56,418 bases of DNA from Candidatus Jorgensenbacteria bacterium (GTDB lineage Bacteria; Patescibacteriota; Minisyncoccia; UBA6257; GWB1-50-10), in the NCBI GenBank assembly GCA_043797305.1, contig JAZDPW010000012.1:1-56418 (forward strand). Reading direction: 5' to 3'. The notes below the pieces were generated by a model. The model was given only the letters and a program-made list of their open reading frames with translations. It searched no databases and had not been told where the DNA came from. Shown one piece after another: positions 5,106 through 53,112 of the stretch. Numbering within the stretch: the stretch's first letter is position 1; the number at the start of each line of letters is the position of its first letter. Position numbers and translations under genes: made by a program.

Positions 5106-6395
5106 ATGCTCGAGAAGATTTTACGCTTTTCCAAAAAGTATCTCATTCCCAGACCGGTTTTTCGGCTGGTTCAGCCGTTTTATCACTATTTTCTCGCTTG
5201 GCTCGGCGCCGTGATTTGCGGCGCGCCGTCAAAGAAGATTTTCGTGGTGGGTATCACCGGCACCAAAGGCAAAACGACAGCTCTTGAGATGGTAAACGCC
5301 GTTCTCGAATCGGCCGGAAAAAAGACGGCAATGTTTTCCTCGGTCAGCCGGAAGATAGGAAGCGAGCGGCGGGGGAACCCAACCGAAACAACCATGCCGG
5401 GCCGGTTTGCTCTCCAGAGGTTTTTTGAGGAAGCGGTCCAAGCCGGTTGTACCCACGCCCTGGTTGAAGTCACCTCCGAGGGCGTGACCAGGCACCGTCA
5501 CCGTTTCATCCACTGGGACGCGGCGGTTTTTTTGAATATTCATCCCGAACACATCGAAGCCCACGGCACGTTCCACGCCTACCTTAAAGCCAAGCTCGGT
5601 TTCTTCCGTTATCTCAAGCATTCCGCCAAGGAGAAAAAGTATTTCCTCATTAACAAAGACGACTCTCACGCCCCCGATTTTGTGGAAGCGGCCGACGAAA
5701 CGAAGAGAAAAGAAGTGATACTTTTCAGCCGGGACGATGTTTCGAGGGTTTTGAACGAAATTAAGGAAGAGCACAGCCCGGACTGGCTCTCCGCCGACTT
5801 CAATTTTGAAAACGCGGCCGCCGCAAACGCCCTCGCCAAGGTCTTAGGAATAAAAGATGAGGAAATTTGGGAGGCTTTCCGGAATTTCAAAACCCTGAAA
5901 GGGAGAATGGACTTCGTCCAAAAGGAGCCCTTTGCGGTCGTCATTGATTACGCCCACACCCCGCTCTCGCTTCTTTCGGTTTACGAAAACCTGCGCCGGG
6001 AGCCGATTTTCAAAAAAGGTTCGCGCCTGATTTGCGTTTTGGGCTCGGCTGGCGGCGGCCGGGACAAATGGAAACGGCCCGAGCTCGGTAAAATCGCCGC
6101 CCACCACTGCGACCAGATTTTCATTACCGACGAAGACCCTTATGAAGAAGACCCCCGCCGAATCATGGAAGAAATAAAGTCCGGCATTCCGGGGGATGAA
6201 TTGCCGGCGCCGAAAATGGAAATGGTTTTGGATAGAAGAGAGGCTATTGAGAAAGCGATTTTTACCGCCCAAAAAGGCGACGTGGTTGCGATAACGGGGA
6301 AAGGAAGCGAAGAGTGGATTCACATGAAAGGCGGCGCAAAAATTCCCTGGGACGACCGCAAAATTGTCGAAGAGATTCTCTTTGACACTCGGTGA
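5106..6395 (+). CDS. murE: Mur ligase family protein (MurE-like UDP-MurNAc-tripeptide synthetase)
   Basis: P-loop GITGTKGKTT, DYAHTP motif, GSAGGGRDKWKRPELG and ITDEDPYEEDP motifs of MurE-type ligases. Confidence 0.7.
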   Translation: MLEKILRFSKKYLIPRPVFRLVQPFYHYFLAWLGAVICGAPSKKIFVVGITGTKGKTTALEMVNAVLESAGKKTAMFSSVSRKIGSERRGNPTETTMPGRFALQRFFEEAVQAGCTHALVEVTSEGVTRHRHRFIHWDAAVFLNIHPEHIEAHGTFHAYLKAKLGFFRYLKHSAKEKKYFLINKDDSHAPDFVEAADETKRKEVILFSRDDVSRVLNEIKEEHSPDWLSADFNFENAAAANALAKVLGIKDEEIWEAFRNFKTLKGRMDFVQKEPFAVVIDYAHTPLSLLSVYENLRREPIFKKGSRLICVLGSAGGGRDKWKRPELGKIAAHHCDQIFITDEDPYEEDPRRIMEEIKSGIPGDELPAPKMEMVLDRREAIEKAIFTAQKGDVVAITGKGSEEWIHMKGGAKIPWDDRKIVEEILFDTR

Positions 6396-6731: not shown

Positions 6732-6773
6732 ATCTGCCCTAGGTTTTAACCTAGGTTAAAACCTAGGGCAGAT
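6732..6773. repeat. Perfect 42-bp palindrome (candidate operator or terminator)
   Basis: ATCTGCCCTAGGTTTTAACCT|AGGTTAAAACCTAGGGCAGAT is self-complementary with no mismatch and contains CCTAGG three times. Confidence 0.9.
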
Positions 6774-6791: not shown

Positions 6792-6965
6792 ATGACAAGG
6801 AGGGAAATTTTTGACGAAGACGTAAGGAATATTCAAAAATCGAAACGGAGCTATTACATCACGCTCCCCATTCGCCACGTGCGGGAATTGGGATGGCGGG
6901 AGACCCAAAAGGTGGTGGTGAAAAAAGAAGGAAAGAAATTAATCGTCGAAGATTGGAAACCATGA
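6792..6965 (+). CDS. AbrB/SpoVT-like small DNA-binding protein (57 aa, absent from the ORF track)
   Basis: Own translation: MTRREIFDEDVRNIQKSKRSYYITLPIRHVRELGWRETQKVVVKKEGKKLIVEDWKP*. The 'YYITLPIRHVRELGW...VVV...GKKLIV' pattern resembles swapped-hairpin AbrB/MazE domains. Its stop overlaps the next gene's start (ATGA at 6962-6965). Confidence 0.6.
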   Translation: MTRREIFDEDVRNIQKSKRSYYITLPIRHVRELGWRETQKVVVKKEGKKLIVEDWKP

Positions 6966-8308
6966 CGCTTACTTTTTACGGCGGCGTCAAAGAAGTGACC
7001 GGCGCCAACTATTTGTTGGAATCGGCCGGGGTGAAGATCCTCGTTGACTGCGGGATGATTCAGGGCGGGAATTACGCCGAGCGGCAGAACTTCGAGCCGT
7101 TTCCCTACGACCCCAAGGGCATAAAAGCGGTTCTCGTAACCCACGCTCACATTGACCATACCGGCCGCCTGCCGAAACTCGTCAAAGACGGGTTTCGCGG
7201 AGAGGTGCTTTCCACTTCGCCGACCCGGGAGTTCGCGAAGCACTTACTCGAAGATTCGGTTGATATTCTCTCCCGGGAAGCGAAAAAACACGGTCGGGAA
7301 CCGTTCTGTGAACCGGAGACGCTCGGGATTCTCGCGAATTTGTGGCAGGGAGTAGGGTACGGCGAAGAAACCGCTATCGGGCCTTTCAGAATTATTTTCC
7401 GCAATGCCGGCCATATTTTGGGTTCGGCCTTCATTGAAATGGAAGCGGAAGGCAAAAAAATAATTTTCTCGGGCGATTTGGGCAACTCCCCGGCGCCGCT
7501 TATCAAACCCCTTGAGTACGCAAGCGGAGCCGATTATTGCCTAATAGAGTCCACTTACGGCGGCCGCGCTCACGAAGGGGTGGATAAAATGAGGGACGAT
7601 TTGGAGGATGTGGTTGAAGATACGGTGCGGGCCGGCGGAGTGCTCCTTATCCCGGCTTTTGCTATGGAGCGGACTCAGTCGCTTCTCCACCACTTGGACG
7701 GCCTGATGGGGGAAGGGCGCATCCCTGAGGTGCCGGTATTTCTCGATAGCCCCCTTGCTATTCGTCTTACCACCGTCTATCAGAGCTTCGGCGAGTACTT
7801 AAGTGAAGAGACGCGGGAATTTTTAAAAAAAGACAAAACCCTTTTCGATTTTCCTTATCTTAAGAAAACCTCCAAGACAGAAGAATCGAAAGCGATTTCC
7901 CGGGTGCTGCCGCCTAAAATCATAATTGCCGGTTCGGGGATGTCTCAGGGCGGTCGGATTCTTTATCACGAAAGGGATTATCTCTCCGACCCGAAAAGCA
8001 CGATTTTGTTCGTCGGTTACCAGGTAAAAGGTTCGCTGGGCCGCCGCATTTTGGACGGCGAAAAACAAGTCAGAATCTTAGGCGAGGAAGTGCCGGTGCG
8101 GGCGAAGGTGGTTGTTATCCACGGCTATTCGGCTCACGCCGACCAGGGACAGCTTCTGGAGTGGCTCTCGCCGATGCGGCAAGGCCTGAAAAAAGTTTTC
8201 GTGGTTCAGGGCGAAGAGGAACAGTCAACTTTGCTTGCCCAAAAAATCGAGGATGAGCTTGCTGTTTCCGCCCATCTTCCTTCTTCGGGCGAGCGCCTGA
8301 TGTTATAA
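6962..8308 (+). CDS. MBL-fold metallo-hydrolase with beta-CASP domain (RNA-metabolising nuclease)
   Basis: HAHIDHTG (HxHxDH) and C-terminal HGYSAHADQ motifs. Start taken at MTLTFYGG (6962) rather than the track start 6893. Confidence 0.85.
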   Translation: MTLTFYGGVKEVTGANYLLESAGVKILVDCGMIQGGNYAERQNFEPFPYDPKGIKAVLVTHAHIDHTGRLPKLVKDGFRGEVLSTSPTREFAKHLLEDSVDILSREAKKHGREPFCEPETLGILANLWQGVGYGEETAIGPFRIIFRNAGHILGSAFIEMEAEGKKIIFSGDLGNSPAPLIKPLEYASGADYCLIESTYGGRAHEGVDKMRDDLEDVVEDTVRAGGVLLIPAFAMERTQSLLHHLDGLMGEGRIPEVPVFLDSPLAIRLTTVYQSFGEYLSEETREFLKKDKTLFDFPYLKKTSKTEESKAISRVLPPKIIIAGSGMSQGGRILYHERDYLSDPKSTILFVGYQVKGSLGRRILDGEKQVRILGEEVPVRAKVVVIHGYSAHADQGQLLEWLSPMRQGLKKVFVVQGEEEQSTLLAQKIEDELAVSAHLPSSGERLML

Positions 8309-13770: not shown

Positions 13771-16266
13771 ATGGCTCTCTATTTTAAAGAACCGAGATTG
13801 GGACTTACCAAAATAGGCGAGTTTCTCACCCGGCTCGTTGCTTACTCAACATATATCGGCCTTACGGCCGGCACACTCCTTCTCTTTTTTTCCGACCTGC
13901 CTTCTTTGAAGCGGCTCGCGGTTTTAATCGCTCTCTTTCTTATCGACAGGGTTCTCCATCTCGGCGAAGCCGAAATGTCAATCCGCGACTTGGATAAAAC
14001 GGAAGAAAAAATCAATCTGGCCGAAGTTTTAACGCCGGCCGCCTATAAAATCATCAACCACGCTTTTCGGAAATCGCTCATGGTCGGTCAGAATTTCAAT
14101 CTTCTTATTTTCAGAGAGCTTGTCATGCGACGCGACGTAAGAGAAGCCCTGAGGCGTTTGAGCGTTCCGTTCGGCGAATGCCTCGATAAAGTCGAGGAAC
14201 ACCTCGAAGAAACCGAACATTCCAGCCGACCGGAGCTTTTGAAATCAATCGAGAAACTGGTTTTGGCATCCTACGAGAACGCGGTAAGAACCGATGAACA
14301 GTTTATCGAGCCCCGGAATATTTTCGTCGCCCTTTCCCGGACGGGCGACGAAAAAATCGCCAAGCTTTTTGAGCTTTTTAACCTGACCGGAAAAGATTTG
14401 GAAGAAACGGTCATTTTTGGAAGATATAGCCGGCTCTTTTCTCGCGTCCATCGTCTGCCGGCGGTTTTAGGCGGTTTCGCCCATCGCCCCAATCATCTCA
14501 GGAAAAGAGTCGTTAATCGCGCCTGGACTTCCCGGCCAACGCCTATGCTCGATAGTTTCAGCACTGACTTTACTGCCCTTGCCCGTGCCGAAAAAGTCGG
14601 ATTTCTCGTCGGTCACGAAAAAGACTTCGATTCGATGTTGAATGTCATTTCCCGGTCGGGCAAACCGAATGTTCTGCTTGTGGGAGAACCCGGTGTCGGG
14701 AAATCGACCTTGATTCACCACCTCGCTTTCCGGATGATTAAAGACGAAGTGCCGCCGATTCTTTTCGATAAGCGGCTGATTTCTCTGGAGCTCGGCAATC
14801 TACTTTCCGACGCTCCGGCCGACGTTTTGGCTGCACGTCTCCGGAAAATAACGGAGGAAATAATTCTTGCCGGCAATATTGTTCTTTTTATTCCCAACAT
14901 CCACGACTTGTTCCGAACGGCCGAGAAAGACGCCTTAAACGCGATAGACATTATTTTGCCGGTAATAAAGAACGCCGAGATACCGACAATCGGCGAAACA
15001 TTTCCGAAAGAATTCAAGCGCTACATCGAGTCGCGTTCGGATTTTCTGGAGCAGTTTGAAGTTGTTGAAGTGGCTGAAATCACCAAAGAAGAAGCGTTGC
15101 GGTTTCTTGTTTACATGAGCTTAATTCTCGAGAGGGAATTTAAAGTCGTTATTACCTTGAGGGCGATAAGCAAAGCGGTAGAACTGGCCAGCCGTTATTT
15201 CCGGAAAAAGCCCTTGCCGGGGTCGGCTGTTGACCTCTTGAAGCAAGCTCTTGCCTGGGCGAGCGAGCAAAAATTGAAGGTTCTGGAAGAAAATCTCGTT
15301 GTCGAAGTAGCCGAGGGACAAAGCAAGATACCGATAGAGAAAGCCGGAACGGAAGAAACGGCAAAACTGCTCGACTTGGAAAACATCATCCACCGAAGGT
15401 TGGTTAACCAAGAAACGTCGGTCCGGGCGGTCTCGCGGGCGCTCCGGGAATATCGGAGCGGCCTTTCCCGGCGCGGCGGCCCGATTGCCGTTTTTCTCTT
15501 TGTGGGGCCGACCGGTGTCGGCAAAACGGAACTGGCCAAAATTTTAACCCAGACCATGTTTGGTTCGAAAGAATCAATGGAGCGTTTTGACATGTCCGAA
15601 TATCAGGACAAGACAAGCGTTTTCCGTCTCATCGGCAATCCGGACGGTTCGCGCACCGGTTCTTTGACGGACGCGATTTTAAAGAAGCCCTACAGCTTAA
15701 TTCTCCTCGACGAGTTCGAAAAATCACATCCGGATATCTTAAATATTTTCCTTCAGGTTTTTGACGACGGGCGCCTGACCGACAGTTTGGGCCGGACCGC
15801 CGGTTTCGAAAACACCATCATCATCGCTACCTCGAACGCCCATTCCAACTTCATCAAAGAAGAAGTCGAAAAAGGGAAGTCGATTGAAGAAATCAGCGAG
15901 GAGTTGAAGAAGAAACTGACCGAATATTTCAAGCCCGAGCTTCTGAACCGTTTCTCCGACATCATTGTTTTCAGGAATTTGAAGATTGAAGAAATTCAGG
16001 TAATTGCCGGCATCCTGGTCGGAGAAGTGACGGAGCTTTTAAAGGAAACTCACGGCATCGTTCTTCGGGTCGAGGAATCAGCCATAAGAGAAATAGCCAA
16101 GCAAGGTTTCAGCCCCGTTTACGGCGCAAGGCCTCTCCGGCAGGTCATTTCGGAGAAAATAAAGAGCCCGCTTGCCGAAAAGATTCTCAAAAAAGAAATA
16201 GCGCGGGGCAACGAAATTTCGGTTGTTTTCGAAAAGGGCCGTTTTGAATTTAAACTGACCTCATAG
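13771..16266 (+). CDS. Membrane-anchored Clp/Hsp100-type AAA+ ATPase (ClpC-like) with a degenerate first ATPase module
   Basis: N-terminal hydrophobic segments and Clp_N-like repeats. D1 has P-loop GEPGVGKST but FIPNIHDL in place of the Walker B FIDEIH. D2 has [16 protein letters not shown] and GARPLRQ intact. Confidence 0.8.
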   Translation: MALYFKEPRLGLTKIGEFLTRLVAYSTYIGLTAGTLLLFFSDLPSLKRLAVLIALFLIDRVLHLGEAEMSIRDLDKTEEKINLAEVLTPAAYKIINHAFRKSLMVGQNFNLLIFRELVMRRDVREALRRLSVPFGECLDKVEEHLEETEHSSRPELLKSIEKLVLASYENAVRTDEQFIEPRNIFVALSRTGDEKIAKLFELFNLTGKDLEETVIFGRYSRLFSRVHRLPAVLGGFAHRPNHLRKRVVNRAWTSRPTPMLDSFSTDFTALARAEKVGFLVGHEKDFDSMLNVISRSGKPNVLLVGEPGVGKSTLIHHLAFRMIKDEVPPILFDKRLISLELGNLLSDAPADVLAARLRKITEEIILAGNIVLFIPNIHDLFRTAEKDALNAIDIILPVIKNAEIPTIGETFPKEFKRYIESRSDFLEQFEVVEVAEITKEEALRFLVYMSLILEREFKVVITLRAISKAVELASRYFRKKPLPGSAVDLLKQALAWASEQKLKVLEENLVVEVAEGQSKIPIEKAGTEETAKLLDLENIIHRRLVNQETSVRAVSRALREYRSGLSRRGGPIAVFLFVGPTGVGKTELAKILTQTMFGSKESMERFDMSEYQDKTSVFRLIGNPDGSRTGSLTDAILKKPYSLILLDEFEKSHPDILNIFLQVFDDGRLTDSLGRTAGFENTIIIATSNAHSNFIKEEVEKGKSIEEISEELKKKLTEYFKPELLNRFSDIIVFRNLKIEEIQVIAGILVGEVTELLKETHGIVLRVEESAIREIAKQGFSPVYGARPLRQVISEKIKSPLAEKILKKEIARGNEISVVFEKGRFEFKLTS

Positions 16267-16947: not shown

Positions 16948-18678
16948 ATGATTTCTAACATTGAGGTCGCCAAAGTTTTAAGAGAAATAGGCGAATACTT
17001 GGAAATGCAGGGTGTGGCGTTTAAGCCGCGTGCTTACGAAAAAGCCGCCGACGGAGTGGTTGGACTGGAAAAACAAGTTTCGGAAATTTATGAAGACGGA
17101 GGCCTGAAGGCGCTCGGAGAAATTCCCGGCGTCGGTTTGTCCATCGCCGAGAAAATAGAAGAGCTTCTCAAAACCGGCCGTCTTCGGTACTACAACGAGC
17201 TGAAGAAAAAAACGCCGGTTGACTTGAGCGCTCTTACCGAAATCGAGGGACTAGGCCCGAAAAACATAAAAAAACTTTACGAAAAACTTAAAATCAAAAA
17301 TCTCAGAGATTTGGAAAAAGCGGCTCAGTCCGGGAAGATAAGGCGTCTCGAGGGTTTTGGTGAAAAATCGGAAGAGAGAATTTTGAAAGGCATCGAATTT
17401 TTGAAAAAATCCGGCGGGCGGGCGGTTTTGGGTTTTGTTCTGCCGGTTGTAAGGAGCATCGAGGAACGTCTCAGGATGCTAAAAGAAGTGGAAAAAGTCA
17501 CGGTTTGCGGTTCAATCCGGCGGATGCAGGAGACAATCGGCGATATAGATATTTTGGTGACGTCTCGGAAACCGCGCGCCGTGATGGATTACTTTGCGGC
17601 CATGCCCGAAGTCACTCACGTTTACGGAAAAGGCGAGACAAAAACCATGGTTCGCCTGAAAATCGGGCTGGATGCCGACTTGAGAGTGGTGAAACCCTCT
17701 TCGTACGGCGCGGCAATTCAGTATTTTACAGGCAGTAAGGAGCACAACATCGCTTTAAGGGAGATAGCGATAAAAAAGGGTTATAAGCTCAATGAATACG
17801 GGCTTTTTCGGGGCAAAAAAATAGTGGCTGGCCGGACCGAGGAGGAGATCTATAAAACTCTCGGTTTGGTCTGGATGCCGCCCGAACTTCGGACCGATTC
17901 CGGCGAAATCGAGGCGGCAGGGAAAAACAAACTGCCGGAACTTGTGAAATACGATTCTCTCCGCGGCGACCTTCAGGTCCAGACCAGCTGGACCGACGGC
18001 AAAAACTCTATTGAAGAAATGGCCCGGGCCGCCCAGACCCTCGGCTTGGAATATATCGCGATAACTGACCACACCAAGCGTCTGGCGATGGCCAAAGGAC
18101 TCGACGAAAAAAGAATCATCAAGCAGTGGGCGGAGATAGATAAAGTCAATAAAAAGTTGAAAGTTCAGGGTTTAAAGTTAAAAGTTCTCAAGGGCACCGA
18201 ATGCGACATTTTAAAAAACGGCTCGCTCGACCTACCCGATAAAATTCTTTCCCGGCTTGACGTAGTCGGTGTTGCCGTCCATTCCCATTTCAATTTGAGC
18301 CGAAAGGAGCAAACCGAAAGGATAGTAAGAGCCATTTCCAACAAGCACGTTCATATTCTTTTTCACTCAACCGGCCGGATTTTGAACAGGCGCAAGCCCT
18401 ACGAAGTCGATATGGACGAGATTATCAAAGTGGCGTTAAAAACCGGTACGGTTTTGGAAATAGACGCTTATCCCGATCGGCTGGATTTGAAAGACGAGCA
18501 CATAAGGAAATGCGTTTCCTCCGGCGTTAAGATGTCGATTGATTCCGACGCCCACTCCACTACTCACTTTCAGTATCTCGAACTTGGCGTTGCCCAAGCA
18601 AGAAGAGGTTGGGCCGAGGAAAATGATATAATAAACGCCTGGCCGTTGGAAAAGATGAAAAAATTCTTGAAAAAATGA
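16948..18678 (+). CDS. polX: DNA polymerase X family protein with C-terminal PHP domain
   Basis: HhH motifs, a pol-beta nucleotidyltransferase core (GSIRRMQETIGDIDILV), and PHP motifs (ITDHT, HSH, DSDAH). Confidence 0.9.
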   Translation: MISNIEVAKVLREIGEYLEMQGVAFKPRAYEKAADGVVGLEKQVSEIYEDGGLKALGEIPGVGLSIAEKIEELLKTGRLRYYNELKKKTPVDLSALTEIEGLGPKNIKKLYEKLKIKNLRDLEKAAQSGKIRRLEGFGEKSEERILKGIEFLKKSGGRAVLGFVLPVVRSIEERLRMLKEVEKVTVCGSIRRMQETIGDIDILVTSRKPRAVMDYFAAMPEVTHVYGKGETKTMVRLKIGLDADLRVVKPSSYGAAIQYFTGSKEHNIALREIAIKKGYKLNEYGLFRGKKIVAGRTEEEIYKTLGLVWMPPELRTDSGEIEAAGKNKLPELVKYDSLRGDLQVQTSWTDGKNSIEEMARAAQTLGLEYIAITDHTKRLAMAKGLDEKRIIKQWAEIDKVNKKLKVQGLKLKVLKGTECDILKNGSLDLPDKILSRLDVVGVAVHSHFNLSRKEQTERIVRAISNKHVHILFHSTGRILNRRKPYEVDMDEIIKVALKTGTVLEIDAYPDRLDLKDEHIRKCVSSGVKMSIDSDAHSTTHFQYLELGVAQARRGWAEENDIINAWPLEKMKKFLKK

Positions 18679-18812
18679 ATCCCGTTAGAAGTCCTAGGCA
18701 TAAAAATTCCAATGGAATTTTTATGCAGGGCACTAACGAGAACAAACCAAGCCAATCATTATTCACCAATATGACAAGGTCAATATTAAATAAAACAGAC
18801 TTCTAACGGGAT
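18679..18812 (+). repeat. TIR-bounded intergenic element, copy 1 (134 nt)
   Basis: ATCCCGTTAGAAG (18679-18691) is the exact inverted complement of CTTCTAACGGGAT (18800-18812). An internal perfect 13-bp AT-rich hairpin lies at 18698-18726. The right repeat contains the ATG of the Nudix gene. Confidence 0.85.
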
Positions 18813-19287
18813 GAAAGAACTTTCTGCCGGAATAATAATTTACAGACGGACCAAGGAAGGTCCGAAGTTTTTGCTCCTCTATCACGGCGGGCGGTACTGG
18901 AATTTCCCGAAAGGAAAAATCGACGACTCTTTGGGTAAAGAGACGACTTTCAAAGCCGCTCTTCGGGAAGTGAGGGAAGAAACAGGCATCCTGCCCCGCG
19001 ACTTGCGTATCAACAGCTGGTTCAAGAGTTACGACAAATACGTTTTTACTCAAAAAGGCAAAAAGGTTTTCAAGACGGTCGTTTATTATCTTGCCGAAAC
19101 GAACGAGCGAGACGTGAAAATTTCGGACGAGCATTCCGGTTTCGGCTGGTTTCTCGAGAAAGAAGCCCTAAGAATGCTTCTCTACGGCAACCTGAAAAAT
19201 AATCTGAAAAAAGCTTATGAAGTCGTTCAAGGAAAGCGTTTACCCCCACACCAAACGAGGACTAATCCGAAGCTGGAGAGAAAGTGA
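18811..19287 (+). CDS. NUDIX hydrolase
   Basis: Nudix box GKIDDSLGKETTFKAALREVREETGI. Confidence 0.85.
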   Translation: MKELSAGIIIYRRTKEGPKFLLLYHGGRYWNFPKGKIDDSLGKETTFKAALREVREETGILPRDLRINSWFKSYDKYVFTQKGKKVFKTVVYYLAETNERDVKISDEHSGFGWFLEKEALRMLLYGNLKNNLKKAYEVVQGKRLPPHQTRTNPKLERK

Positions 19288-21922: not shown

Positions 21923-21956
21923 AAAAAACCGCCTTAAACAAGGCGAGTTTTTGTTT
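21923..21956. terminator. Bidirectional hairpin between the PKD gene and the tmRNA 3' end
   Basis: AAAAAA-CGCCTT-aaac-AAGGCG-AGTTTTTGTTT. Confidence 0.45.
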
Positions 21957-21957
21957 G

Positions 21958-22277
21958 TGGACATGGCGAGAGTCGAACTCGCGTGTAGAGAGTTTCTCAA
22001 AAATCGTCTACAGGCTTACCCGCCGTAGAGGCGAGGAAATTTGGTTCCATGGTTTAGCTTACGACTATCGAACCGTTTCATCGTAAGCGAGCTCAATGTA
22101 TTACACCGGTTGAACCCTTATTGAGCATCAGGAACCGATGCCCGCTTAAGCGAAAGCTAAAGCAGGAGCTGCAACTTTGTTGTTGGCAGTTAAATTTGTT
22201 TGCCGAATTTTTAACGAGTTTCGGCGGCTCGGCCTGCAAATTCTCGAAAACGCACTCTGTCAAAGCCCATCATGCCC
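21958..22277 (-). ncRNA. ssrA: tmRNA (SsrA)
   Basis: The 5' GGGCAUG pairs with the 3' CAUGUCC-A, including G3:U70. T-arm GCGAG-UUCGACU-CUCGC. The tag reading frame GCC AAC AAC AAA GTT GCA GCT CCT GCT TTA GCT TTC GCT TAA encodes ANNKVAAPALAFA* (22146-22187). Lies directly downstream of smpB. Confidence 0.85.
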
Positions 22278-22700
22278 GCGAATTTCCCGTTCCGTTTCCC
22301 GTTTTTTAATGAGCTCGCGCTTGTCCTTTTTCTTTCTTCCTCTCCCGAGTCCCAATTCAACCTTTACCAATCCGCGGTCAGTATAGACGCGAAGGGGTAC
22401 CAGAGTCAAATTCGCCTCTAGTTTACCGATGAGATAATTTATCTCCTCCCGATTCATAAGGAGTTTTTTGGTTCGTTTCGGGTCGTAGTCGGTTGGAGCG
22501 TTTCCCGGTTGGAAAGAAGGGACTTCCATTCCGAGAACGTAGAGTTCGCCGCCGCGAATTATCGCGTGGCTTCCGGCAATATTTATCCGGCCCATTTTTA
22601 TGGATTTTGCCTCATGGCCGGTAAGTTCAATACCCGCCTTGAATTTCTCGAGGATTTCGTAATCAAAGCCGGCTCGCTTGTTTAAGGCCAATACCTTCAT
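22260..22700 (-). CDS. smpB: SsrA-binding protein SmpB
   Basis: NKRA.FDYEI.EKF.AGIEL.G.E.KS... is the canonical SmpB N-terminus, and the C-terminal tail is basic. Confidence 0.9.
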   Translation of the reverse strand: MKVLALNKRAGFDYEILEKFKAGIELTGHEAKSIKMGRINIAGSHAIIRGGELYVLGMEVPSFQPGNAPTDYDPKRTKKLLMNREEINYLIGKLEANLTLVPLRVYTDRGLVKVELGLGRGRKKKDKRELIKKRETEREIRGHDGL

Positions 22701-22712
22701 AAACCCATTTTA

Positions 22713-22841
22713 CCCCGTTAGAAGTTCGTATCAATCCACCCCCCTTTATTACATTTATGTTTTTGTTTTTTTATCCTTATTTTAAGCCTTTGACAAGAAA
22801 AAATTTTCTGAAATTTTTTCTGTCCAGAATTTCTAACGGGG
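22713..22841 (+). repeat. TIR-bounded intergenic element, variant copy 4 (129 nt)
   Basis: CCCCGTTAGAA (22713-22723) is the inverted complement of TTCTAACGGGG (22831-22841). An internal AT-rich hairpin with one bulge lies at 22792-22824. Confidence 0.65.
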
Positions 22842-22877
22842 TTTACCGCCCAGTCCGGAACGGGGTATAGTTATAGG

Positions 22878-42405: not shown

Positions 42406-42479
42406 TGGTGCGGGATGGGAGAATCGAACTCCCGTCCACAGTTTGGAAAACTGTTATTCTGCCACTAAACTAATCCCGC
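42406..42479 (-). tRNA. tRNA-Gly (anticodon UCC)
   Basis: GCGGGAT/ATCCCGC acceptor, anticodon loop TTTCCAA, T-loop TTCGATT. CCA is encoded. Confidence 0.85.
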
Positions 42480-42528
42480 TTTCTTTAGCTATATCAATAT
42501 ACTATTTTTAAATCTCTCTTCATATTTT

Positions 42529-42603
42529 TGGTCGGGCCGCCGAGACTCGAACTCGGACTAAATCCTCCCAAAGGACTCGTGCTAGCCATTACACTACGGC
42601 CCG
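42529..42603 (-). tRNA. tRNA-Pro (anticodon UGG)
   Basis: CGGGCCG/CGGCCCG acceptor (C1:G72), anticodon loop TTTGGGA. CCA is encoded. Confidence 0.85.
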
Positions 42604-42648
42604 CCTCCTCTTTAAATTATCCGATTTACGGTTTAAAATCAAAAGCCT

Positions 42649-42720
42649 CCCCTCGTAGTTCAATGGACAGAACGAAAGGTTTCTAACCTTTTAATGCGGG
42701 TTCGATTCCTGCCGAGGGGA
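42649..42720 (+). tRNA. tRNA-Arg (anticodon UCU)
   Basis: CCCCTCG/CGAGGGG acceptor, anticodon loop TTTCTAA, T-loop TTCGATT. Confidence 0.8.
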
Positions 42721-42728
42721 CAAAAACC

Positions 42729-43469
42729 TTACTCCGGAACCATTACGCCAATGGTCCAGAGGAGAACTAAGCCAAGGATTATAAGTAAGAGGTGGGTGAA
42801 CTCTTCCGGTTTGCCTTTATGGTGAAGCTCGGGCATCAAATCGGACATGGCGATGTAGATGAATATCCCGCCGGCAAAGGCGGTGAGGATCGGGACGGCG
42901 TTCGGAATAAAGGGAATAAGAAAATACCCCGCAATTGCGCCAACCGGAGTGGTAAGAGCGGTCAAGAAATTATAAAGGAGAACCTTGCTTTTGCTGTAAC
43001 CGGCGTGGAGCAGAACTCCGAAGTCGCCGATTTCCTGTGGCACTTCGTGGAAAAAGATGGCAATGGTGGTGGCGATTCCGACCGGAGTGCCGAGGCTGAA
43101 ACTCAAAGCGATGATTACCCCGTCAATGAAATTGTGAATAGTATCACCAAAAAGGATAGTACCCGAAAAACTGTGGAACTCGCACCCTTCTATGTCGTGG
43201 CAGTGATACCAGCGGAGAAACTTTTCGAAGATAAAGAGCAGGAGGATGCCCGCCAGGGTAAAAATGAAAACATTTTTCCCGTCGCCGGCCGCTTCGAGCG
43301 CTTCGGGCAGAAGGTCAAAAAAGGCGGCGCCCAAAAGAGCTCCGATTGCAAAACTCACGAAAAAAAGAGAAGCCTTTCTTGCAACAACCTCCCTGGTAAG
43401 CAAAATAATCCCGCCCACGAGGGCGAAGACGCTGCCGACTAAACTTGCGATGATGATTTGGGCTAACAT
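42729..43469 (-). CDS. zupT: ZIP family metal transporter
   Basis: HNFIDG and HEVPQEIGDFGVL motifs in a polytopic protein. Confidence 0.8.
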   Translation of the reverse strand: MLAQIIIASLVGSVFALVGGIILLTREVVARKASLFFVSFAIGALLGAAFFDLLPEALEAAGDGKNVFIFTLAGILLLFIFEKFLRWYHCHDIEGCEFHSFSGTILFGDTIHNFIDGVIIALSFSLGTPVGIATTIAIFFHEVPQEIGDFGVLLHAGYSKSKVLLYNFLTALTTPVGAIAGYFLIPFIPNAVPILTAFAGGIFIYIAMSDLMPELHHKGKPEEFTHLLLIILGLVLLWTIGVMVPE

Positions 43470-43474
43470 TTATG

Positions 43475-43546
43475 TGCCGCGGGAGGGAATCGAACCCCCG
43501 ACGCCAGCCTCTTCGGGGCTGCGCTCTGCCACTGAGCTACCGCGGC
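43475..43546 (-). tRNA. tRNA-Phe (anticodon GAA) with C at position 33
   Basis: GCCGCGG/CCGCGGC acceptor, anticodon stem CAGCC/GGCTG, loop CCGAAGA. Confidence 0.75.
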
Positions 43547-43652
43547 GTTTTACCTCCTTTTCCATTCCAAAAGCTTTTAGCATTTTATTGTATTTTTTCT
43601 TGAGAAACAAGGTCGGAGAACGATTTCATTTTCGCCGCCAAAATTAACGCCA

Positions 43653-44294
43653 TTACTTAATAATCTGCCCGCCGATTTTCTCCGCCGTTTCCTCGGCCGC
43701 CGCTTCTTTTTTGATGAACGATTTCAGGAAATGCTTGGTGCCGAAGATGATAATCAAGATAATGACGACAACTACAATCTGTAAATTCCGGAAGAGGTCT
43801 ACTCCTTGGAGAACAATAAAGCCGGAAGCAATGAGAAAATAAACTATGCTGTTGCCGCCAAGCCAGAGGGCGTTTGCTATTAGTCTTGTCTTGGAGAATT
43901 TTACCCAGCTCATTTTCGTCCAGCCGCTCAAAGTCAGCATCGCGATGTTCATGTAAGCTACGAACCGGGAAAGAATGAGGAGTAGAGTAGCGTTTTTATT
44001 GACGTGAAACTCCACCCGGGCGTAATGAGGAATTTTCCTTTCAATGAAACGGCCAAAGCGGCTGTCGTTGAAATAGCGTCCGAGAAAATAAAAAAAATTT
44101 TCGTAGACGAATACGCTCATCCCGGCCGCGAACAGGAAACTACCAATTGTGAGGTGCCCTGTAACGACGAGATACATCGAAAGAAGCATCGTAATTTCAC
44201 CCTGAAGGAGTATTCCCACGGCAATTATCACGTGCCGCCAGGCATAATGGGTCATTATGAATTGTCCGGCCGTCTCAATTATCTGGTTGTCCAC
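43653..44294 (-). CDS. DedA/VTT-domain family membrane protein
   Basis: 213 aa and polytopic, with a general DedA-like pattern (…GE.T.L....LV..G….F..G…). Judged by eye. Confidence 0.5.
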   Translation of the reverse strand: MDNQIIETAGQFIMTHYAWRHVIIAVGILLQGEITMLLSMYLVVTGHLTIGSFLFAAGMSVFVYENFFYFLGRYFNDSRFGRFIERKIPHYARVEFHVNKNATLLLILSRFVAYMNIAMLTLSGWTKMSWVKFSKTRLIANALWLGGNSIVYFLIASGFIVLQGVDLFRNLQIVVVVIILIIIFGTKHFLKSFIKKEAAAEETAEKIGGQIIK

Positions 44295-44334
44295 GAGTCC
44301 ATTATACCTTAAAATTATTTAGGGAGATTAAGCC

Positions 44335-44724
44335 ATGATTATTAATTCGGAAAACGTGAGATTCAAAGCGGCGCGCTCTTCGGGTCCGGGTGGACAAAAA
44401 GCCAACCGCCGTTCGACAAAGGTCCAGCTTTGGGTTAAAATAGGGGACCTGGCCTTAAGTTCTCTGGAAAAGAAGAGATTAAGGAAGAAACTTGTGCGTC
44501 ACATCAATCATCTCGACGAACTTCAGGTAGAGAACGAAGAAGAGCGCTCGCAGAAAATGAATCGGGAGAATGCGTTCAGAAAGTTAAATGAATTGATAAG
44601 CGGGGCGCTTAAAGTTCCCAAGAAACGAGTCCCGACCTTGCCGCGCCGGAGCGCCGAGGAGGCGAGAATTCGCGCCAAGAAAATTAAAAGCGAGAAAAAG
44701 AGGGGCAGGCGGATAGTTCATTAG
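44335..44724 (+). CDS. arfB: Alternative ribosome-rescue factor ArfB-like peptidyl-tRNA hydrolase
   Basis: GGQ motif SGPGGQKANRRSTKV in a 129-aa protein with a basic C-terminal tail. Confidence 0.8.
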   Translation: MIINSENVRFKAARSSGPGGQKANRRSTKVQLWVKIGDLALSSLEKKRLRKKLVRHINHLDELQVENEEERSQKMNRENAFRKLNELISGALKVPKKRVPTLPRRSAEEARIRAKKIKSEKKRGRRIVH

Positions 44725-44752
44725 TAATTAGAAATTTGTAAGATTAAGATAT

Positions 44753-44827
44753 GGTGCCTATGGTGTAGTGGTAACACAACGCTCTGTGGCAGCGTTATCA
44801 CCGGTTCAAATCCGGTTAGGCACCCCA
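44753..44827 (+). tRNA. tRNA-His (anticodon GUG)
   Basis: An extra G-1 opposite C73, anticodon loop CTGTGGC. CCA is encoded. Confidence 0.85.
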
Positions 44828-45684: not shown

Positions 45685-45693
45685 TAAAAATGA

Positions 45694-45827
45694 ATCCCGT
45701 TAGAAGTCCTTGGCACTAAAAATTTCACAGAAATTTTTATGCTCGGTGCTAACAGGGACAAACCAAAAAATCACTATTTACTAATATAACAAGGTCAACA
45801 TCAAATAAAACAGGCTTCTAACGGGAT
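45694..45827 (+). repeat. TIR-bounded intergenic element, copy 2 (134 nt)
   Basis: ATCCCGTTAGAAG (45694-45706) is the inverted complement of CTTCTAACGGGAT (45815-45827). Colinear with copy 1 across its full length, with mostly matching sequence. The right repeat contains ATG 45826. Confidence 0.85.
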
Positions 45828-46047
45828 GAAAAAAACCTTAACGATTGTTATCATAGTAATCGTTCTTGCCTTGGTTATCTGGTTTATTTTTCGCTCGCCC
45901 GAGCCGGTTTTTTCGCCGGAGGCGGGGACGACTGGGGTTTTGGGAGGTGACACAACTTCGGCTATTAATAACGACTTAAACAGCCTGGACTTAGGTGACC
46001 TGGATAGTGAATTCCAGCAGATTGACGCTGATTTAAACCAACTCTAG
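45826..46047 (+). CDS. Small N-terminally anchored protein
   Basis: 73 aa. MKKTLTIVIIVIVLALVIWFIF TM segment followed by an acidic tail. Confidence 0.5.
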   Translation: MKKTLTIVIIVIVLALVIWFIFRSPEPVFSPEAGTTGVLGGDTTSAINNDLNSLDLGDLDSEFQQIDADLNQL

Positions 46048-47868: not shown

Positions 47869-47872
47869 TTTT

Positions 47873-47909
47873 AGCAAATACGAACGATCGCTCGTATTTG
47901 CTATTTTTG
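47873..47909 (+). terminator. Intrinsic terminator after the cysteine desulfurase gene
   Basis: AGCAAATACGA-acgatcgc-TCGTATTTGCT followed by ATTTTTG. Confidence 0.8.
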
Positions 47910-48006
47910 ATTCGCCGGGGTTTTTACTATATCTTTTTAAGTAGCTCATGGATATGTGAAGCTCGAAGATATTGTGGCTCGAGACTTAACTTGGAGGGTG
48001 GAAGCC

Positions 48007-48171
48007 ATGCTAACTTTCGTTCCGTTGCTGGCTGCCCCGTTTCTGGTGGTGGCCGCGGTTCTCGCGTTTGAAGGGTGGATCAGCAAGGGCGGCCGGTTGC
48101 GAGGTCTTTTGTTGGTCTCGGCGATCGTCGCTCTTTTCACCTGCGGTTGGCTGATAAGCCCTACTCCCTAA
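48007..48171 (+). CDS. Small two-TM membrane protein in a GC-rich islet
   Basis: 54 aa from the internal ATG, which has GGAGGG 8 nt upstream. Two hydrophobic segments are separated by KGGRLRG. Confidence 0.4.
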   Translation: MLTFVPLLAAPFLVVAAVLAFEGWISKGGRLRGLLLVSAIVALFTCGWLISPTP

Positions 48172-48199
48172 CTATAGGAATGGCCTTCCTCATCGCGCT

Positions 48200-48240
48200 C
48201 GCCCCGGAGGTGAAACTATCCCCGGGGCGGTTCGTTTTAA
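48200..48240 (+). terminator. GC-rich hairpin terminator closing the islet
   Basis: CGCCCCGG (48200-48207) pairs with CCGGGGCG (48222-48229), followed by GTTCGTTTTA. Confidence 0.5.
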
Positions 48241-48291
48241 AGAATATGAGGGTTGACTACCTCATTTAATTAATTAAAATTAATTCTATGA

Positions 48292-48423
48292 ATCCCGTTA
48301 GAAGTTCTCGGCAGAAAATTTTAGGTTAAAATTTTTTGCTCGGAACGAACGGGTCAAGTGAGAAAATCAAAATTATTTTAGAATAAATACAAAAGTCGCG
48401 TAAATACAAACTTCTAACGGGAT
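48292..48423 (+). repeat. TIR-bounded intergenic element, copy 3 (132 nt)
   Basis: ATCCCGTTAGAAG (48292-48304) is the inverted complement of CTTCTAACGGGAT (48411-48423). The internal hairpin is retained through compensatory changes. The right repeat contains ATG 48422. Confidence 0.85.
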
Positions 48424-49213
48424 GAAAGAAACAACAAAAAATTATTTGGGGGTCGCGATAATCATTTCCATTCTCATTGTCGCTTTTTCGTCCTGGAGCT
48501 TCGTTCGTTCCTATTCCCGCTCGATTGAGCCGTCGTCTTTCCGGAGCTTTTCGGTTTCCGGTGAGGGAAAAATTGTCGCTGTGCCCGACGTGGCGGAATT
48601 CTCTTTTAGTGTGATTACCCAGGGCGGTACCGATATCGCGAGCTCCCAGAAAACAAACACGGAAAAAACCAATGCCGCGATAGATTTCGTTAAATCCAAA
48701 GGAGTGGACGCGAAAGATATAAAAACGGCGAGCTACAACCTAGAACCGCGCTACCAGTATTACAACTGCCTCCCGAATTACCTTGAGGACGGCAGTGTGC
48801 GGCCCTGTCCGCCGGCCGAGATTGTCGGCTACACCGTGACCCAAACCGTTCTCGTGAAAGTCCGGGACTTTACCAAAATCGGTGATATCTTGGGAGGGGT
48901 TGTTGGCGCGGGCGCAAACAGCGTTTCCCAACTGAGCTTTACGATTGACGACGAAGAAAAAGTTCAGGCGGAAGCAAGGGAAGAAGCAATAAACGTAGCC
49001 AAGGGAAAAGCCGAGTCTATTGCCAAAGCCGCGGGTTTTAGCGTGGGCCGCCTTCTCTCCATCAGCGAATCGGGTGTTTATCCGCGGGCCTATTACGCTA
49101 AGGAAATGGCTTACGGCCTAGGCGGTGGAGATACGGCCGCCGCCGTGCCGAGCATAGAACCCGGCTCGCAAGAAGTAACCGTAGACGTTACTCTCACTTA
49201 CGAAATTCGTTAA
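48422..49213 (+). CDS. SIMPL (DUF541) domain protein
   Basis: N-terminal anchor, then GEGKIVAVPDVAEFSFSV...NLEPRY...GYTV.Q.V.V, typical of SIMPL / 26-kDa periplasmic proteins. Confidence 0.7.
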   Translation: MKETTKNYLGVAIIISILIVAFSSWSFVRSYSRSIEPSSFRSFSVSGEGKIVAVPDVAEFSFSVITQGGTDIASSQKTNTEKTNAAIDFVKSKGVDAKDIKTASYNLEPRYQYYNCLPNYLEDGSVRPCPPAEIVGYTVTQTVLVKVRDFTKIGDILGGVVGAGANSVSQLSFTIDDEEKVQAEAREEAINVAKGKAESIAKAAGFSVGRLLSISESGVYPRAYYAKEMAYGLGGGDTAAAVPSIEPGSQEVTVDVTLTYEIR

Positions 49214-50481: not shown

Positions 50482-53112
50482 ATGCCAAACTTCCATCGTT
50501 TCACAATCAAAGCTCAGGAAGCGCTCCAAAATGCTCAGGAGCTCATTTCGAAATACAATCACGGCGAACTCAAAGCCGTTCATCTTCTTTTTGCGCTTCT
50601 TGGCGATGACACCACCCTCGTCCGGCCGATGCTTATCCGGGCGAACGTCAATTTAGCTGAACTGGAAAAAGAACTGGAGAGCGAGCTTCAAAAATTGCCT
50701 AAAATTTTCAGCGCTTCCGGCAACGTAAGCCAGCTTTATCTTTCCCAGGAACTGATGCGGGTCCTGGATAAAGCTGCCGACATCGCGATGCGCCAGCGGG
50801 ACGAATTCGTCTCCTGCGAGCATTTGGTTCTCGCCTTGAACGAAGTGCCGTCGCTTGCCCGGGAAATTCTCGCCCGTTTCGGTGCGCGGCGCGACGTTCT
50901 CATCCGGACATTGGCCCAGCTTCGCGGTTCGGTGCGGGTGACCGACGAGACGCCCGAGAGCAAGTTCCAGGTGCTTGAGAAATACGCCGTAAATCTTACC
51001 AACAAAGCCAGAGAGGGAAAACTTGACCCGGTTGTCGGCCGCGAAGACGAACTGCGGAGAGTAACCCAGATTCTTTCGAGGCGCACCAAAAACAACCCCG
51101 TTTTGATAGGCGAACCCGGGGTCGGCAAAACCGCGATCGTGGAAGGCCTCGCTCAGCGAATCGTCTCCGGCGACATTCCGGAATCGTTGAAAGAAAAAGA
51201 AGTGATAATGCTTGACCTTGGGTCGCTTATTGCCGGCACCAAGTTCCGGGGGGAATTTGAAGACCGCTTAAAAGCGTTCTTGAAGGAAGTCCAGCAATCG
51301 GCCGGGCGGATAATCCTTTTTATTGACGAAATCCATATGATTGTCGGCGCCGGCGCGGCCGAAGGCGCGGTTGACGCTTCCAACCTTCTGAAGCCGGCTC
51401 TGGCAAGGGGCGAGCTCCACGCCGTGGGCGCTACCACTCTTAAGGAATATCAAAAACACATTGAGAAGGACCCGGCCCTGGAGCGTCGTTTCCAGCCCGT
51501 CATTGTTGAAGAACCGGGTATTGAAGACAGCGTGAATATCTTGAGGGGGCTCAAAGAAAAATATGAGATGCATCATGGTTTGAAAATTTCGGACGACGCC
51601 TTGGTTGCGGCGGTAAACTTGGGTGCTCGCTACATTACCGACAGATTTTTGCCTGACAAGGCCGTTGACTTGATTGATGAAGCGGCCGCCGCCCGGCGCC
51701 TTGAATCGGACAGTACCCCGATCCAGATTGAAAAGCTGCGCCGGGAAATTACCCGGCTCGAAATCGAGCAGTCCGCCCTTACTAAGGCCAAGTCCAAAAA
51801 GAATATTGAACGGATGAAGGAAGTGAACAATAAACTGAAAGTTTTGAAGGAGGAAAATGACGCGCTCTCCGCGGGCTGGCACGCCGAAAAAATCGCCGCT
51901 CAAGACCTTCATAATTTGAGAAAAACCGTCGATGACTTGCGGCATTTTGCCGAGATTGCCGAACGGGACGGCGACCTGGAGCGGGTAGCCGAAATAGTTT
52001 ACGGCGAACTTCCGAAAGCCGAGCGCGAATTAAAATCTCTTGAGAAAAAAAGTTTCAAAACCGAAGGCGGCAATTTCATTAAAGAATCGGTTGACGAAGA
52101 AGACATTGCAATGGTCGTTTCCCGCTGGACCGGCATTCCGATTTCCCGGATGCTCGAGTCGGAAATGAAAAAACTCGTCCGGATTGAGGAAGAATTGTCC
52201 CACCGGGTAGTCGGCCAGGAAGAAGCGATCTCCGCCGTTTCACGCGCTCTCCGTCGGTCGCGGGCGGGTCTGAGCGATGAAGACAAACCGGCCGGCTCTT
52301 TCATGTTTTTGGGACCGACCGGCGTGGGCAAGACCGAGCTGGCTCGGGCTCTAGCAAGCTTTATGTTTAACGACGAGAAAGCGCTGATACGCATCGACAT
52401 GTCGGAATATATGGAGCGCCACACCGTTTCGCGCCTTATTGGCTCGCCGCCGGGCTATGTCGGCCACGAGGAAGGGGGACAGCTTACCGAAATCATCCGC
52501 CATCGGCCTTATTCTTTGGTTCTTTTCGATGAGATTGAGAAAGCCCATCCGGAGGTTTTTAATATTCTTCTCCAGGTATTGGATAACGGGCGGCTCACCG
52601 ACAGCAAGGGCAAAACCGTCAATTTCAAAAACGCCGTCATAATTCTTACCTCGAACGTGGGCAGCGAGTACTTCCGGCAGATTTCCTCGCTCGGATTCAA
52701 AGCCGGCGGGGACGAGGACGAAATCTCCTCGGGAGAAGAGGAGTTCCGGGAAAAAGCGATGGATTCCCTCAAACGGACTTTCAAGCCGGAATTCCTGAAC
52801 CGATTGGACGAAATAGTGGTCTTTAGGGCGCTCACGCCCGCCGATATCAGGCAGATTGTCGATTTGGAACTGAAAGAGGTTGAGGAAAAACTTAAAGAGA
52901 GGGGAATAACCATAACCGTAGCGGCGAAGGTCAAAGAACATCTGGCTCGGGAGGGTTTCGACCCCGATTACGGGGCAAGGCCGCTGAAGCGCCTGATTCA
53001 GAAGACGATCGTTGACGGGCTTGCCGATAAAATAATAAAAGGCGAAGTTAATGACGGCTCGCGTGTTAAAGTTTCTATCAACCGAAAAGACGCTGTGGAA
53101 ATTACTGCTTAA
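50482..53112 (+). CDS. clpB: Chaperone ClpB
   Basis: Clp_N repeats, D1 ([16 protein letters not shown]), a long coiled-coil M-domain, and D2 ([25 protein letters not shown]). Confidence 0.9.

Follow-up and report, generated by a model that had tools for sequence, protein, structure and literature searches.

Four short repeated elements in a 56,418-nt stretch of DNA from Candidatus Jorgensenbacteria (GenBank assembly GCA_043797305.1, contig JAZDPW010000012.1; "the window" below means this whole stretch) are miniature inverted-repeat transposable elements (MITEs), as demonstrated by the precisely empty orthologous sites of relatives, from which it follows that the elements were inserted. With considerable confidence we assign them to one large superfamily of non-autonomous MITEs, moved by a trans-acting enzyme that makes a 4-bp staggered cut and represented today mainly by those insertions that probably spared the signals of neighbouring genes. 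The superfamily, which is apparently undescribed, occurs across Patescibacteria and into other anaerobic lineages.

The elements of the window

A covariance model built from 23 family members and run with filters off finds exactly four elements in the window and none besides (Table 1). They lie where an initial annotation of the sequence had placed them, and the paired ends agree. The 11-mer CCCGTTAGAAG (at most one mismatch) occurs ten times in the window as compared with 1.03 expected, and eight of these occurrences are the inward-facing paired ends of the four elements. The termini read YCCCGTTAGAAG...CTTCTAACGGGR or, counting the terminal base, TCCCG...CGGGA (copies 1-3) and CCCCG...CGGGG (copy 4), the repeat proper being T/C-CCCGTTAGAAG... 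of at least 12 nt. The same 4-mer abuts both sides of each copy, TGAA in copies 1-3 and TTTA (plus strand) in copy 4. These flanking direct repeats were absent from the initial annotation, which had given a 13-nt terminal inverted repeat; the repeats are real, but the outermost A and T belong to the TGAA target-site duplication. Copy 4, entered there as a variant, is indeed present, but its minus-strand orientation had been missed: the covariance score is 84.9 bits on the minus strand and 29.8 bits on the plus strand, and copy 4 is therefore inverted relative to copies 1-3. The GC content is ~33-36% in the elements and ~49% in the window.

Copies 1-3 are preceded by (A)TGA, as had been noticed, and the TGA before copy 1 is the stop codon of PolX. 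All three terminate in GGGATGAAA, whose ATG starts the downstream open reading frame (ORF), encoding a Nudix protein, a 73-aa membrane protein and a SIMPL protein, respectively. The start codon had been thought to lie inside the right repeat; the ATG does stand at the element edge, but only its first base is shared, as the last base of the repeat. Copy 4 occupies the spacer between smpB (22260-22700, minus strand) and the divergent gene argS. It is upstream of smpB, and 12 nt separate its end from the smpB ATG.

Table 1. Coordinates of the four MITEs of the window and of associated features
Feature	Position	Strand	Remarks
MITE copy 1	18680-18811	+	132 nt; 106.5 bits; ends TCCCGTTAGAAGTC...GACTTCTAACGGGA
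MITE copy 2	45695-45826	+	132 nt; 99.2 bits
MITE copy 3	48293-48422	+	130 nt; 104.2 bits
MITE copy 4	22713-22841	-	129 nt; C...G termini
Left TGAA target-site duplication, copy 1	18676-18679	+	
Right TGAA target-site duplication, copy 1	18812-18815	+	bases 2-5 of the Nudix ORF
TGAA duplications, copy 2	45691-45694 and 45827-45830		
TGAA duplications, copy 3	48289-48292 and 48423-48426		
TTTA duplications, copy 4	22709-22712 and 22842-22845		
PolX stop codon TGA, copy 1	18676-18678		within the left duplication; PolX ORF 16948-18678
Displaced ancestral Nudix start ATG, copy 1	18675-18677		from the original ATGA stop/start overlap
Old ATG, copy 2	45690-45692		
Old ATG, copy 3	48288-48290		
Nudix ORF	18811-19287	+	A18811, last base of copy 1, is the A of ATG
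73-aa membrane-protein ORF	45826-46047	+	A45826 (copy 2) is its first base
SIMPL ORF	48422-49213	+	A48422 (copy 3) is its first base
Internal AT-rich hairpin, copy 1	18698-18726	+	
Equivalent internal hairpin, copy 2	about 45717-45740		
Equivalent internal hairpin, copy 3	about 48310-48340		
Equivalent internal hairpin, copy 4	about 22792-24		
Promoter-like site, TTGACT-16-TAAAAT	48253-48280	+	outside copy 3; ends 7 nt before the old SIMPL ATG
Hybrid smpB promoter-like site	22707-22734	-	TTGATA inside the MITE, 16 nt, TAAAAT ending 6 nt before ATG 22700
argS promoter-like site, TTTACC-18-TATAGT	22842-22871	+	ends 6 nt before GTG 22878; begins with the right TTTA duplication

Empty sites in relatives

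In syntenic Jorgensenbacteria-like relatives none of the four orthologous positions is occupied, and each site is precisely empty: what a filled site has in addition is exactly the element and one 4-bp repeat. PolX is 81% identical to its counterpart in Candidatus Jorgensenbacteria GWA1_49_17 and GW2011_GWC1_46_20, where the gene order is that of the window. The site of copy 1 is empty in three relatives (L199, L203 and L204), in which the PolX and Nudix genes overlap by 4 nt, reading ttgaaaaaATGAAggag, ...ttgaaaaaATGAAggagctttc, while the window reads ...ttgaaaaaATGAA(TCCCG...CGGGA)TGAAagaactttc. The smpB-argS spacer is empty in L199 as well and reads aaacccatTTTAccgcc, as compared with aaacccatTTTA(CCCCG...CGGGG)TTTAccgcc at copy 4.

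For copies 2 and 3 the empty sites were found in two more distant syntenic contigs (L205 and L208; aminotransferase 62-66% identical). The site of copy 2 there reads ...acATGAAaa, and the spacer left after the preceding gene without the element measures 14 nt at the gene for the membrane protein (72 aa in these relatives) and 34-71 nt at the SIMPL gene. The N-termini of both proteins align with those of the window proteins, which means that the ATG at the element edge is the real start codon. The downstream genes, Nudix included, thus do start at the element edge, in line with the initial annotation. Neither copies nor half-sites of the element were found in ~106 kb of the syntenic relatives, nor was the element found in 509 kb of metagenome relatives whose aminotransferase is at most 53% identical and which are uninformative about insertion polymorphism. 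The MITE alternative put forward in the initial annotation is borne out by these empty sites, by the variable 4-bp duplications and by the unrelated gene groups that lie downstream of the family, as described below.

A large family with near-invariant termini

One genome per species (596 Gb) was scanned with the pattern CCCGTTAGAA-N94-124-TTCTAACGGG. At least 118 loci match, the loci listed being a lower bound, and by our own arithmetic ~17 chance matches would be expected in 596 Gb. The family is very large and extends well beyond the window. The 146 elements analysed are those from the listed loci plus the window copies. Most matches are metagenome-assembled genomes (MAGs) of Patescibacteria, including Saccharibacteria, Paceibacterota, Nealsonbacteria, Kaiserbacteria, Nomurabacteria, Staskawiczbacteria, Berkelbacteria, Levyibacteriota and Kazan, and some are MAGs of Deltaproteobacteria/Syntrophaceae (Desulfobacterota), Planctomycetota/Scalinduaceae, Omnitrophota and Gammaproteobacteria.

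The family termini, Y-CCCGTTAGAA-R...Y-TTCTAACGGG-R (the ends may also be written YCCCGTTAGAAR...YTTCTAACGGGR), are near-invariant and conserved far better than the ends of ordinary insertion sequences. The perfect inverted repeat has a median of 13 nt (10-17 in most of the 146 elements), and the terminal bases are complementary in 137/146 (T..A in 73, C..G in 64). Most family elements are ~100-145 nt long; the analysed ones span 102-145 nt, a size range set by the gap limits of the scan. Their non-coding interior varies, and the family has no conserved ORF, the frame from the old ATG stopping at variable points just as had been seen in the window.

A perfect 4-bp direct repeat stands outside the ends in 99 of the 146 elements; shuffled partners give 13.8 on average and 22 at most. 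The duplications are mostly of the form TNNA and comprise at least 15 different sequences (TGAA 47, TAAA 14, TGGA 9, TGAG 7, TATG 6, TTGA 4, and others), and the repeats are identical to the 4-mer that stands once at the empty site. A tyrosine recombinase acting on a lox-like core was rejected, since the 4-mer on either side is that of the target and a given duplication is found in both polarities within one subfamily. There are also short versions, 24-78 nt long and with flanking repeats; these may point to a hairpin-recognising enzyme, and they may also be in-situ deletion derivatives.

Several copies outside Patescibacteria (L002, L018, L027, L033, L052, L098, L102, L107 and L116) are GC-rich and contain nested mini-hairpins of 24-31 nt with the same termini. 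Their duplications are mostly TTTA/TAAA (flanks ...TTTAC / GTTTA...). Such features suggest that the copies of Desulfobacterota, Planctomycetota and Omnitrophota differ in target habit or have passed from one phylum to another, mis-binning of contigs being possible too.

Two matches among the IMG/VR viral contigs (L210 6246-6671 and L211 8384-8809) were rejected as carriers of the family, being arrays of unrelated short palindromes. The arrays consist of CCGTTAGAAC-N4-GTTCTAACGG, are GC-rich and of a different architecture, and have a GTTAGAA core in common with the MITE repeats; they could be operator-like.

The element matched no Rfam family in gathering mode, and in E-value mode the best hits were eukaryotic microRNA and small nucleolar RNA models at 20-24 bits, with cut-offs of 38-92. 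A BLAST search of plasmids and phages with copy 1 gave nothing meaningful. Literature searches, of incomplete coverage, returned no description of such MITEs in Patescibacteria, and a prior description is possible.

Insertion at start codons

An ORF of at least 50 codons begins right at one end in 87 of the 146 elements, the outermost base of that end doubling as the first base of its ATG or GTG, as compared with ~2% expected under a crude uniform model over non-coding TNNA sites. The 87 elements precede 83 distinct gene groups and must therefore represent independent insertions. Their geometry is constant, ...ATGnnY-CCCG...CGGG-RTGnn...: the start codon is cut behind its A (A/TGNN, the stroke marking the cut), TGnn is duplicated, and the terminal purine of the element together with the TG re-creates ATG or GTG. 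The old ATG is kept in the left flank in 57/87. In 11 copies with a perfect duplication a left-hand ATG is matched by a right-hand GTG, and two copies show the reverse. The 11 copies show that the terminal purine is supplied by the element, and they rule out a 5-bp duplication with a target-derived terminal purine.

Where the duplication starts with TGA (48 copies), the left TGA closes the upstream ORF in 11, copy 1 being one example. At these former ATGA stop/start overlaps the element separates stop and start, both codons remaining intact. Away from starts, copies are often found at boxes of the TTGAC, TTTAC or TAAAAT type. Insertion at the start codon is apparently survived by essential genes.

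Orientation relative to the gene

Within a subfamily the gene lies nearly always on the same side, with ratios of 24-25:0 in the GCGATCGC-type and 13:1 in the subfamily of the window, for which the covariance model gives ~17:3 (a hand tally of strands against gene sides). Of the three exceptions, at least L056 and L067 stand before the same gene, and a single inherited insertion is the probable source of both. The outer 13 nt of both ends are identical, and from nt 14 inward there is a consistent difference, the upstream end reading ..ARY-CGCG.. and the gene-proximal end, read inward, ..ARY-AGGwCGC.

The scores for an outward sigma-70 promoter (Escherichia coli-type scoring) are alike in forward and reverse direction (p = 0.27), and -10 boxes are unenriched at any position. 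An inward promoter from the upstream end, using TTAGAA of the repeat as -35 box, occurs in 11/87 as compared with 3/87 (p = 0.45 overall). The length of the upstream ORF (uORF) does not differ between the real and the inverted orientation (p = 0.18), and element length modulo 3 is unbiased (26/19/17). The only general asymmetry is a sense strand that is A-rich in 69/87 elements (p = 3e-8), together with an excess of -10-like hexamers, which are ~2x commoner on that strand (ATATAA 28 sense, 6 antisense).

The largest subfamily (b; L013, L022, L031, L062, L113 and others) has extended repeats that contain the palindrome GCGATCGC, identical to the cyanobacterial HIP1 motif, and its gene-proximal arm carries a conserved bulge of 3-5 nt.

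Predicted folding and host signals

Each window copy is predicted to fold as a hairpin closed by the repeats, with z-scores of -4.2 to -7.9 relative to shuffled controls. Over the family, the terminal bases are paired in the predicted single-strand fold of 134/146 elements, with a median of -40 kcal/mol. The sequestration of the AUG by paired repeats that the initial annotation put forward is a folding prediction, and of the start codon no more than the first base falls within the predicted stem. Compensatory changes in the AT-rich internal hairpin, first noted from the window copies alone, recur over 23 family members, where they maintain the first internal hairpin and the repeat stem: 12 pairs are changed on both sides, and at the terminal pair 18 members have C-G and 5 have U-A. 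Compensatory changes can reflect transposase binding or DNA hairpins as well as constraint on RNA, and a secondary use of the RNA hairpin by the host would be possible.

A Shine-Dalgarno-like motif precedes only 8 of the 51 window genes, and a TAnnnT box ends 4-12 nt before the ATG in 20 of the 51, with a peak at 6 nt. This pattern suggests that leaderless or near-leaderless mRNAs may be widespread in this Jorgensenbacteria-like genome; an incomplete search of the literature on leaderless transcripts in Patescibacteria gave nothing relevant. All promoter-like sites reported here are predicted, as consensus matches only. The spacing of the site upstream of copy 3 (48253-48280) to the old SIMPL ATG fits the leaderless pattern of the window genes and, if the site is used, the transcript would begin at the old ATG and carry the MITE as its 5' leader. 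At copy 4, the ancestral spacer of 35 nt had the -10-like TAAAAT of smpB on one strand overlapping the -35-like TTTACC of argS on the other. The TAAAAT box now consists of the duplicated TAAA plus AT, and both divergent boxes were left intact because TTTA was duplicated.

In the window ~420 bp (47869-48291) separate the aminotransferase stop from the SIMPL region, as compared with the 34-71-nt spacer in syntenic relatives. Besides the promoter-like site this stretch holds a terminator-like hairpin (47872-47903) and a hydrophobic ORF of 71 aa (47956-48171, GTG start), which may be a lineage-specific small gene.

Other features of the window

The gene for tmRNA (21955-22277, minus strand) lies directly downstream of smpB, whose listed ORF overlaps it by ~18 nt, and five tRNA genes are clustered at 42.4-44.8 kb (42406-44827). 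A perfect spacerless palindrome of 21+21 nt, ATCTGCCCTAGGTTTTAACCT/AGGTTAAAACCTAGGGCAGAT, is found at 6732-6773 in the gap between the ORFs 5106-6395 and 6893-8308. A 138-nt direct repeat of 73% identity (15701-15838 and 52520-52657) lies inside ORFs of 831 aa and 876 aa, which may be paralogues, since their positional counterparts in relatives carry ClpB-type AAA+ domains.

Mechanism and alternatives

In the mechanism that we favour, an enzyme supplied in trans would insert the element at a 4-bp staggered cut and thereby duplicate the target, usually TNNA and most often TGAA. The symmetric ends and the staggered cut with TNNA preference make a DDE-type transposase the most likely candidate. 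The duplication lets the element split overlapping signals and destroy neither of them. At A/TGNN the upstream copy of the target retains the old ATG, plus the TGA stop where genes overlapped as ATGA, and the terminal purine followed by the downstream TG then re-creates the start; at copy 4 the duplicated TTTA retains the -10-like box of smpB as well as the -35-like box of argS. In a genome where spare DNA is scarce, the excess at start codons and the orientation bias probably result mainly from the survival of harmless insertions.

As to expression of the downstream gene, we infer a route in which the element is co-transcribed with that gene, which we consider most likely. Ribosomes coming from the retained upstream stop or from the old start would melt the 5' arm and expose the rebuilt start, the frame ATG-nnY-CCC-GTT-AGA being always open through this arm, and in this host the rebuilt start would be usable independently of Shine-Dalgarno pairing. 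An internal sense promoter or processing by RNase III could serve instead, and CPR (Candidate Phyla Radiation) genomes retain both RNase III and RNase J (PMC12641178).

Several results weigh against this mechanism. The uORF from the old ATG stops at the TAA of the right repeat in only 14/62, which argues that tight termination-reinitiation is not general. No autonomous element with the family termini was found in the ~1.5 Mb of fetched loci, where repeat pairs 300-4000 bp apart and orphan ends were searched for and none was convincing. Symmetric DDE transposition predicts random orientation, although the orientation is almost fixed, and none of the features tested accounts for the bias. The versions of 24-78 nt are awkwardly short for the pairing of both ends on one DNA molecule.

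The start-codon preference could instead be a property of the enzyme, insertion being actively targeted to translation or transcription starts in fixed orientation and the cue being some asymmetric feature of start regions, for instance an extended ATGAA-type motif or, at leaderless starts, the open promoter complex. The observation of 60% of copies at start codons and the orientation ratios within subfamilies at independent genes are in agreement with such targeting, and the ends that differ from nt 14 inward would allow an asymmetric complex at host starts that often coincide with a predicted transcription start. We regard it as rather doubtful, in that copy 1 and ten others sit inside operons at ATGA overlaps without a nearby promoter, the duplications vary in sequence around a TNNA consensus that is roughly symmetric, ~40% of copies lie elsewhere, often at -35- or -10-like boxes, and the non-start sites show both polarities in one subfamily (TTGA/TCAA, TATG/CATA). 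Function rather than harmlessness would account for orientation and persistence if the element had been adopted by the host as a portable expression module, in which an internal sense promoter, an A-rich leader or a hairpin processed by RNase III restores a short or leaderless 5' end. The fixed orientation, the A-rich sense strand with its -10-like hexamers, the TTGATA of copy 4 at 16 nt from the smpB TAAAAT box, the retained RNases and the analogy with Neisseria Correia/nemis hairpins, which are RNase III substrates, all fit this explanation. Adoption is nevertheless unlikely: the promoter-like motifs have no conserved position and the strands score alike, close relatives express the same genes without the element, and the strand-biased k-mers reflect general A-richness. 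It is possible, though less likely than not, that the association with start codons is built into the biology of the element. The transposition machinery would then read start sites, which in this leaderless-type host coincide with transcription starts, and insert in one orientation; or else a usable start would be restored by processing of the transcribed hairpin, for example by RNase III and RNase J, or by its opening through ribosomes from the retained upstream signals. If true, the family would be a phylum-wide, self-neutralising 'start-codon cassette'.

Mobilisation as a single-stranded hairpin by a structure-recognising enzyme, either an HUH/Y1 protein (REP-RAYT, IS200/IS605) or an attC-type recombinase, would be in line with short termini that are extremely conserved across phyla while interiors diverge, with minimal versions that are hairpins of 24-31 nt, with the lack of an autonomous insertion sequence in the fetched loci, with the strict orientation, with the conserved 3-5-nt bulge of the gene-proximal arm in subfamilies b to d, and with the covariation of stem and terminal pair. 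We think it distinctly improbable, since the 4-bp target duplications are genuine and variable, as checked against empty sites, whereas IS200/IS605 and REP elements are not known to make any. The ends are moreover perfectly symmetric up to the terminal base, a GTAG-type REP motif is absent, the cores stand in the opposite order to those of attC (RYYYAAC first, GTTRRRY last), and the short versions could be in-situ deletion derivatives. The other alternative of the initial annotation, a vertically inherited cis-regulatory RNA in the 5' untranslated region (a riboswitch or translational operator, palindromic by chance), draws on the stable predicted fold with compensatory changes and on the position directly upstream of start codons. 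As an inherited leader it is excluded by the empty sites of relatives, and with the flanking target duplications, the 83 unrelated gene groups downstream, the lack of an Rfam match and an interior that is highly variable between subfamilies this origin is hardly credible. Signal-sparing insertion of a trans-mobilised MITE is therefore the explanation that we prefer.

Significance

CPR/Patescibacteria have tiny, dense genomes that are thought to carry few mobile elements. By its 4-bp duplication and terminal purine, the MITE superfamily places DNA between overlapping signals with neither being broken, be it a stop/start overlap, a promoter beside a start codon or divergent -10/-35 boxes. Gene callers may mis-start such genes, and 11 changes from ATG to GTG in our sample are caused by the element. 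More than 80 unrelated genes tolerate a predicted hairpin of ~-40 kcal/mol abutting their start in a Shine-Dalgarno-poor, leaderless-looking host, which makes the family a natural experiment on translation initiation in such organisms. The strict orientation points to a new mode of targeting or to a function at the transcript level.

Comparison with known systems

The element behaves as do bacterial MITEs of the Correia/nemis, ERIC or RUP class, and it is a member of none of them because repeat sequence and duplication differ. The Correia/nemis elements of Neisseria (~100-155 bp) are non-coding, have inverted repeats and many copies near genes, are co-transcribed and form repeat-closed hairpins; they can contribute promoter boxes and are RNase III substrates. 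The likeness to our family lies in size, non-coding nature, inverted repeats, many gene-adjacent copies, predicted hairpins closed by the repeats and probable co-transcription. Correia elements have 26-bp repeats and a TA duplication and occur in one genus only, whereas here the repeat is unrelated, the duplication is a 4-bp TNNA and the 13-nt termini are conserved phylum-wide and beyond. Correia elements are not known to rebuild start codons or to have a fixed orientation.

The IS1380/piggyBac group, with duplications of 4-5 bp, may be comparable in its 4-bp T...A duplication and its repeats starting with CC(C). piggyBac duplicates TTAA and has the repeat CCCTAGAAAG, which resembles CCCGTTAGAAG, a resemblance that could be due to chance. 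In our family the duplication is not fixed to TTAA and an extra covarying terminal Y...R base precedes CCCG. No protein of the IS1380/piggyBac transposase type was found among the fetched loci, and such an origin is a lead only. Integron attC sites share an imperfect palindrome, YYYAAC/GTTRRR-like cores and unpaired bases on one arm, but the core order is reversed here (GTTAGAA 5', TTCTAAC 3'), the last position does not fit and the flanks are target duplications; the window contains no integrase or cassette array, its neighbouring genes being housekeeping genes.

REP and REPIN sequences resemble the family as short, hairpin-forming, non-autonomous repeats with a strongly conserved core and ~100-nt doublets, without multi-copy autonomous partners. 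REPs have a GTAG core and lie mostly downstream of genes, whereas the present elements have true 4-bp duplications, stand at gene starts and are without a GTAG core (a RAYT gene was not searched for). Rickettsia palindromic elements (RPE) are inserted in frame inside ORFs and are translated. Like the MITEs described here, they are palindromic mobile elements that persist in reduced genomes since the geometry of insertion spares the gene; unlike RPE, the present family stays outside the ORF and regenerates its start codon.

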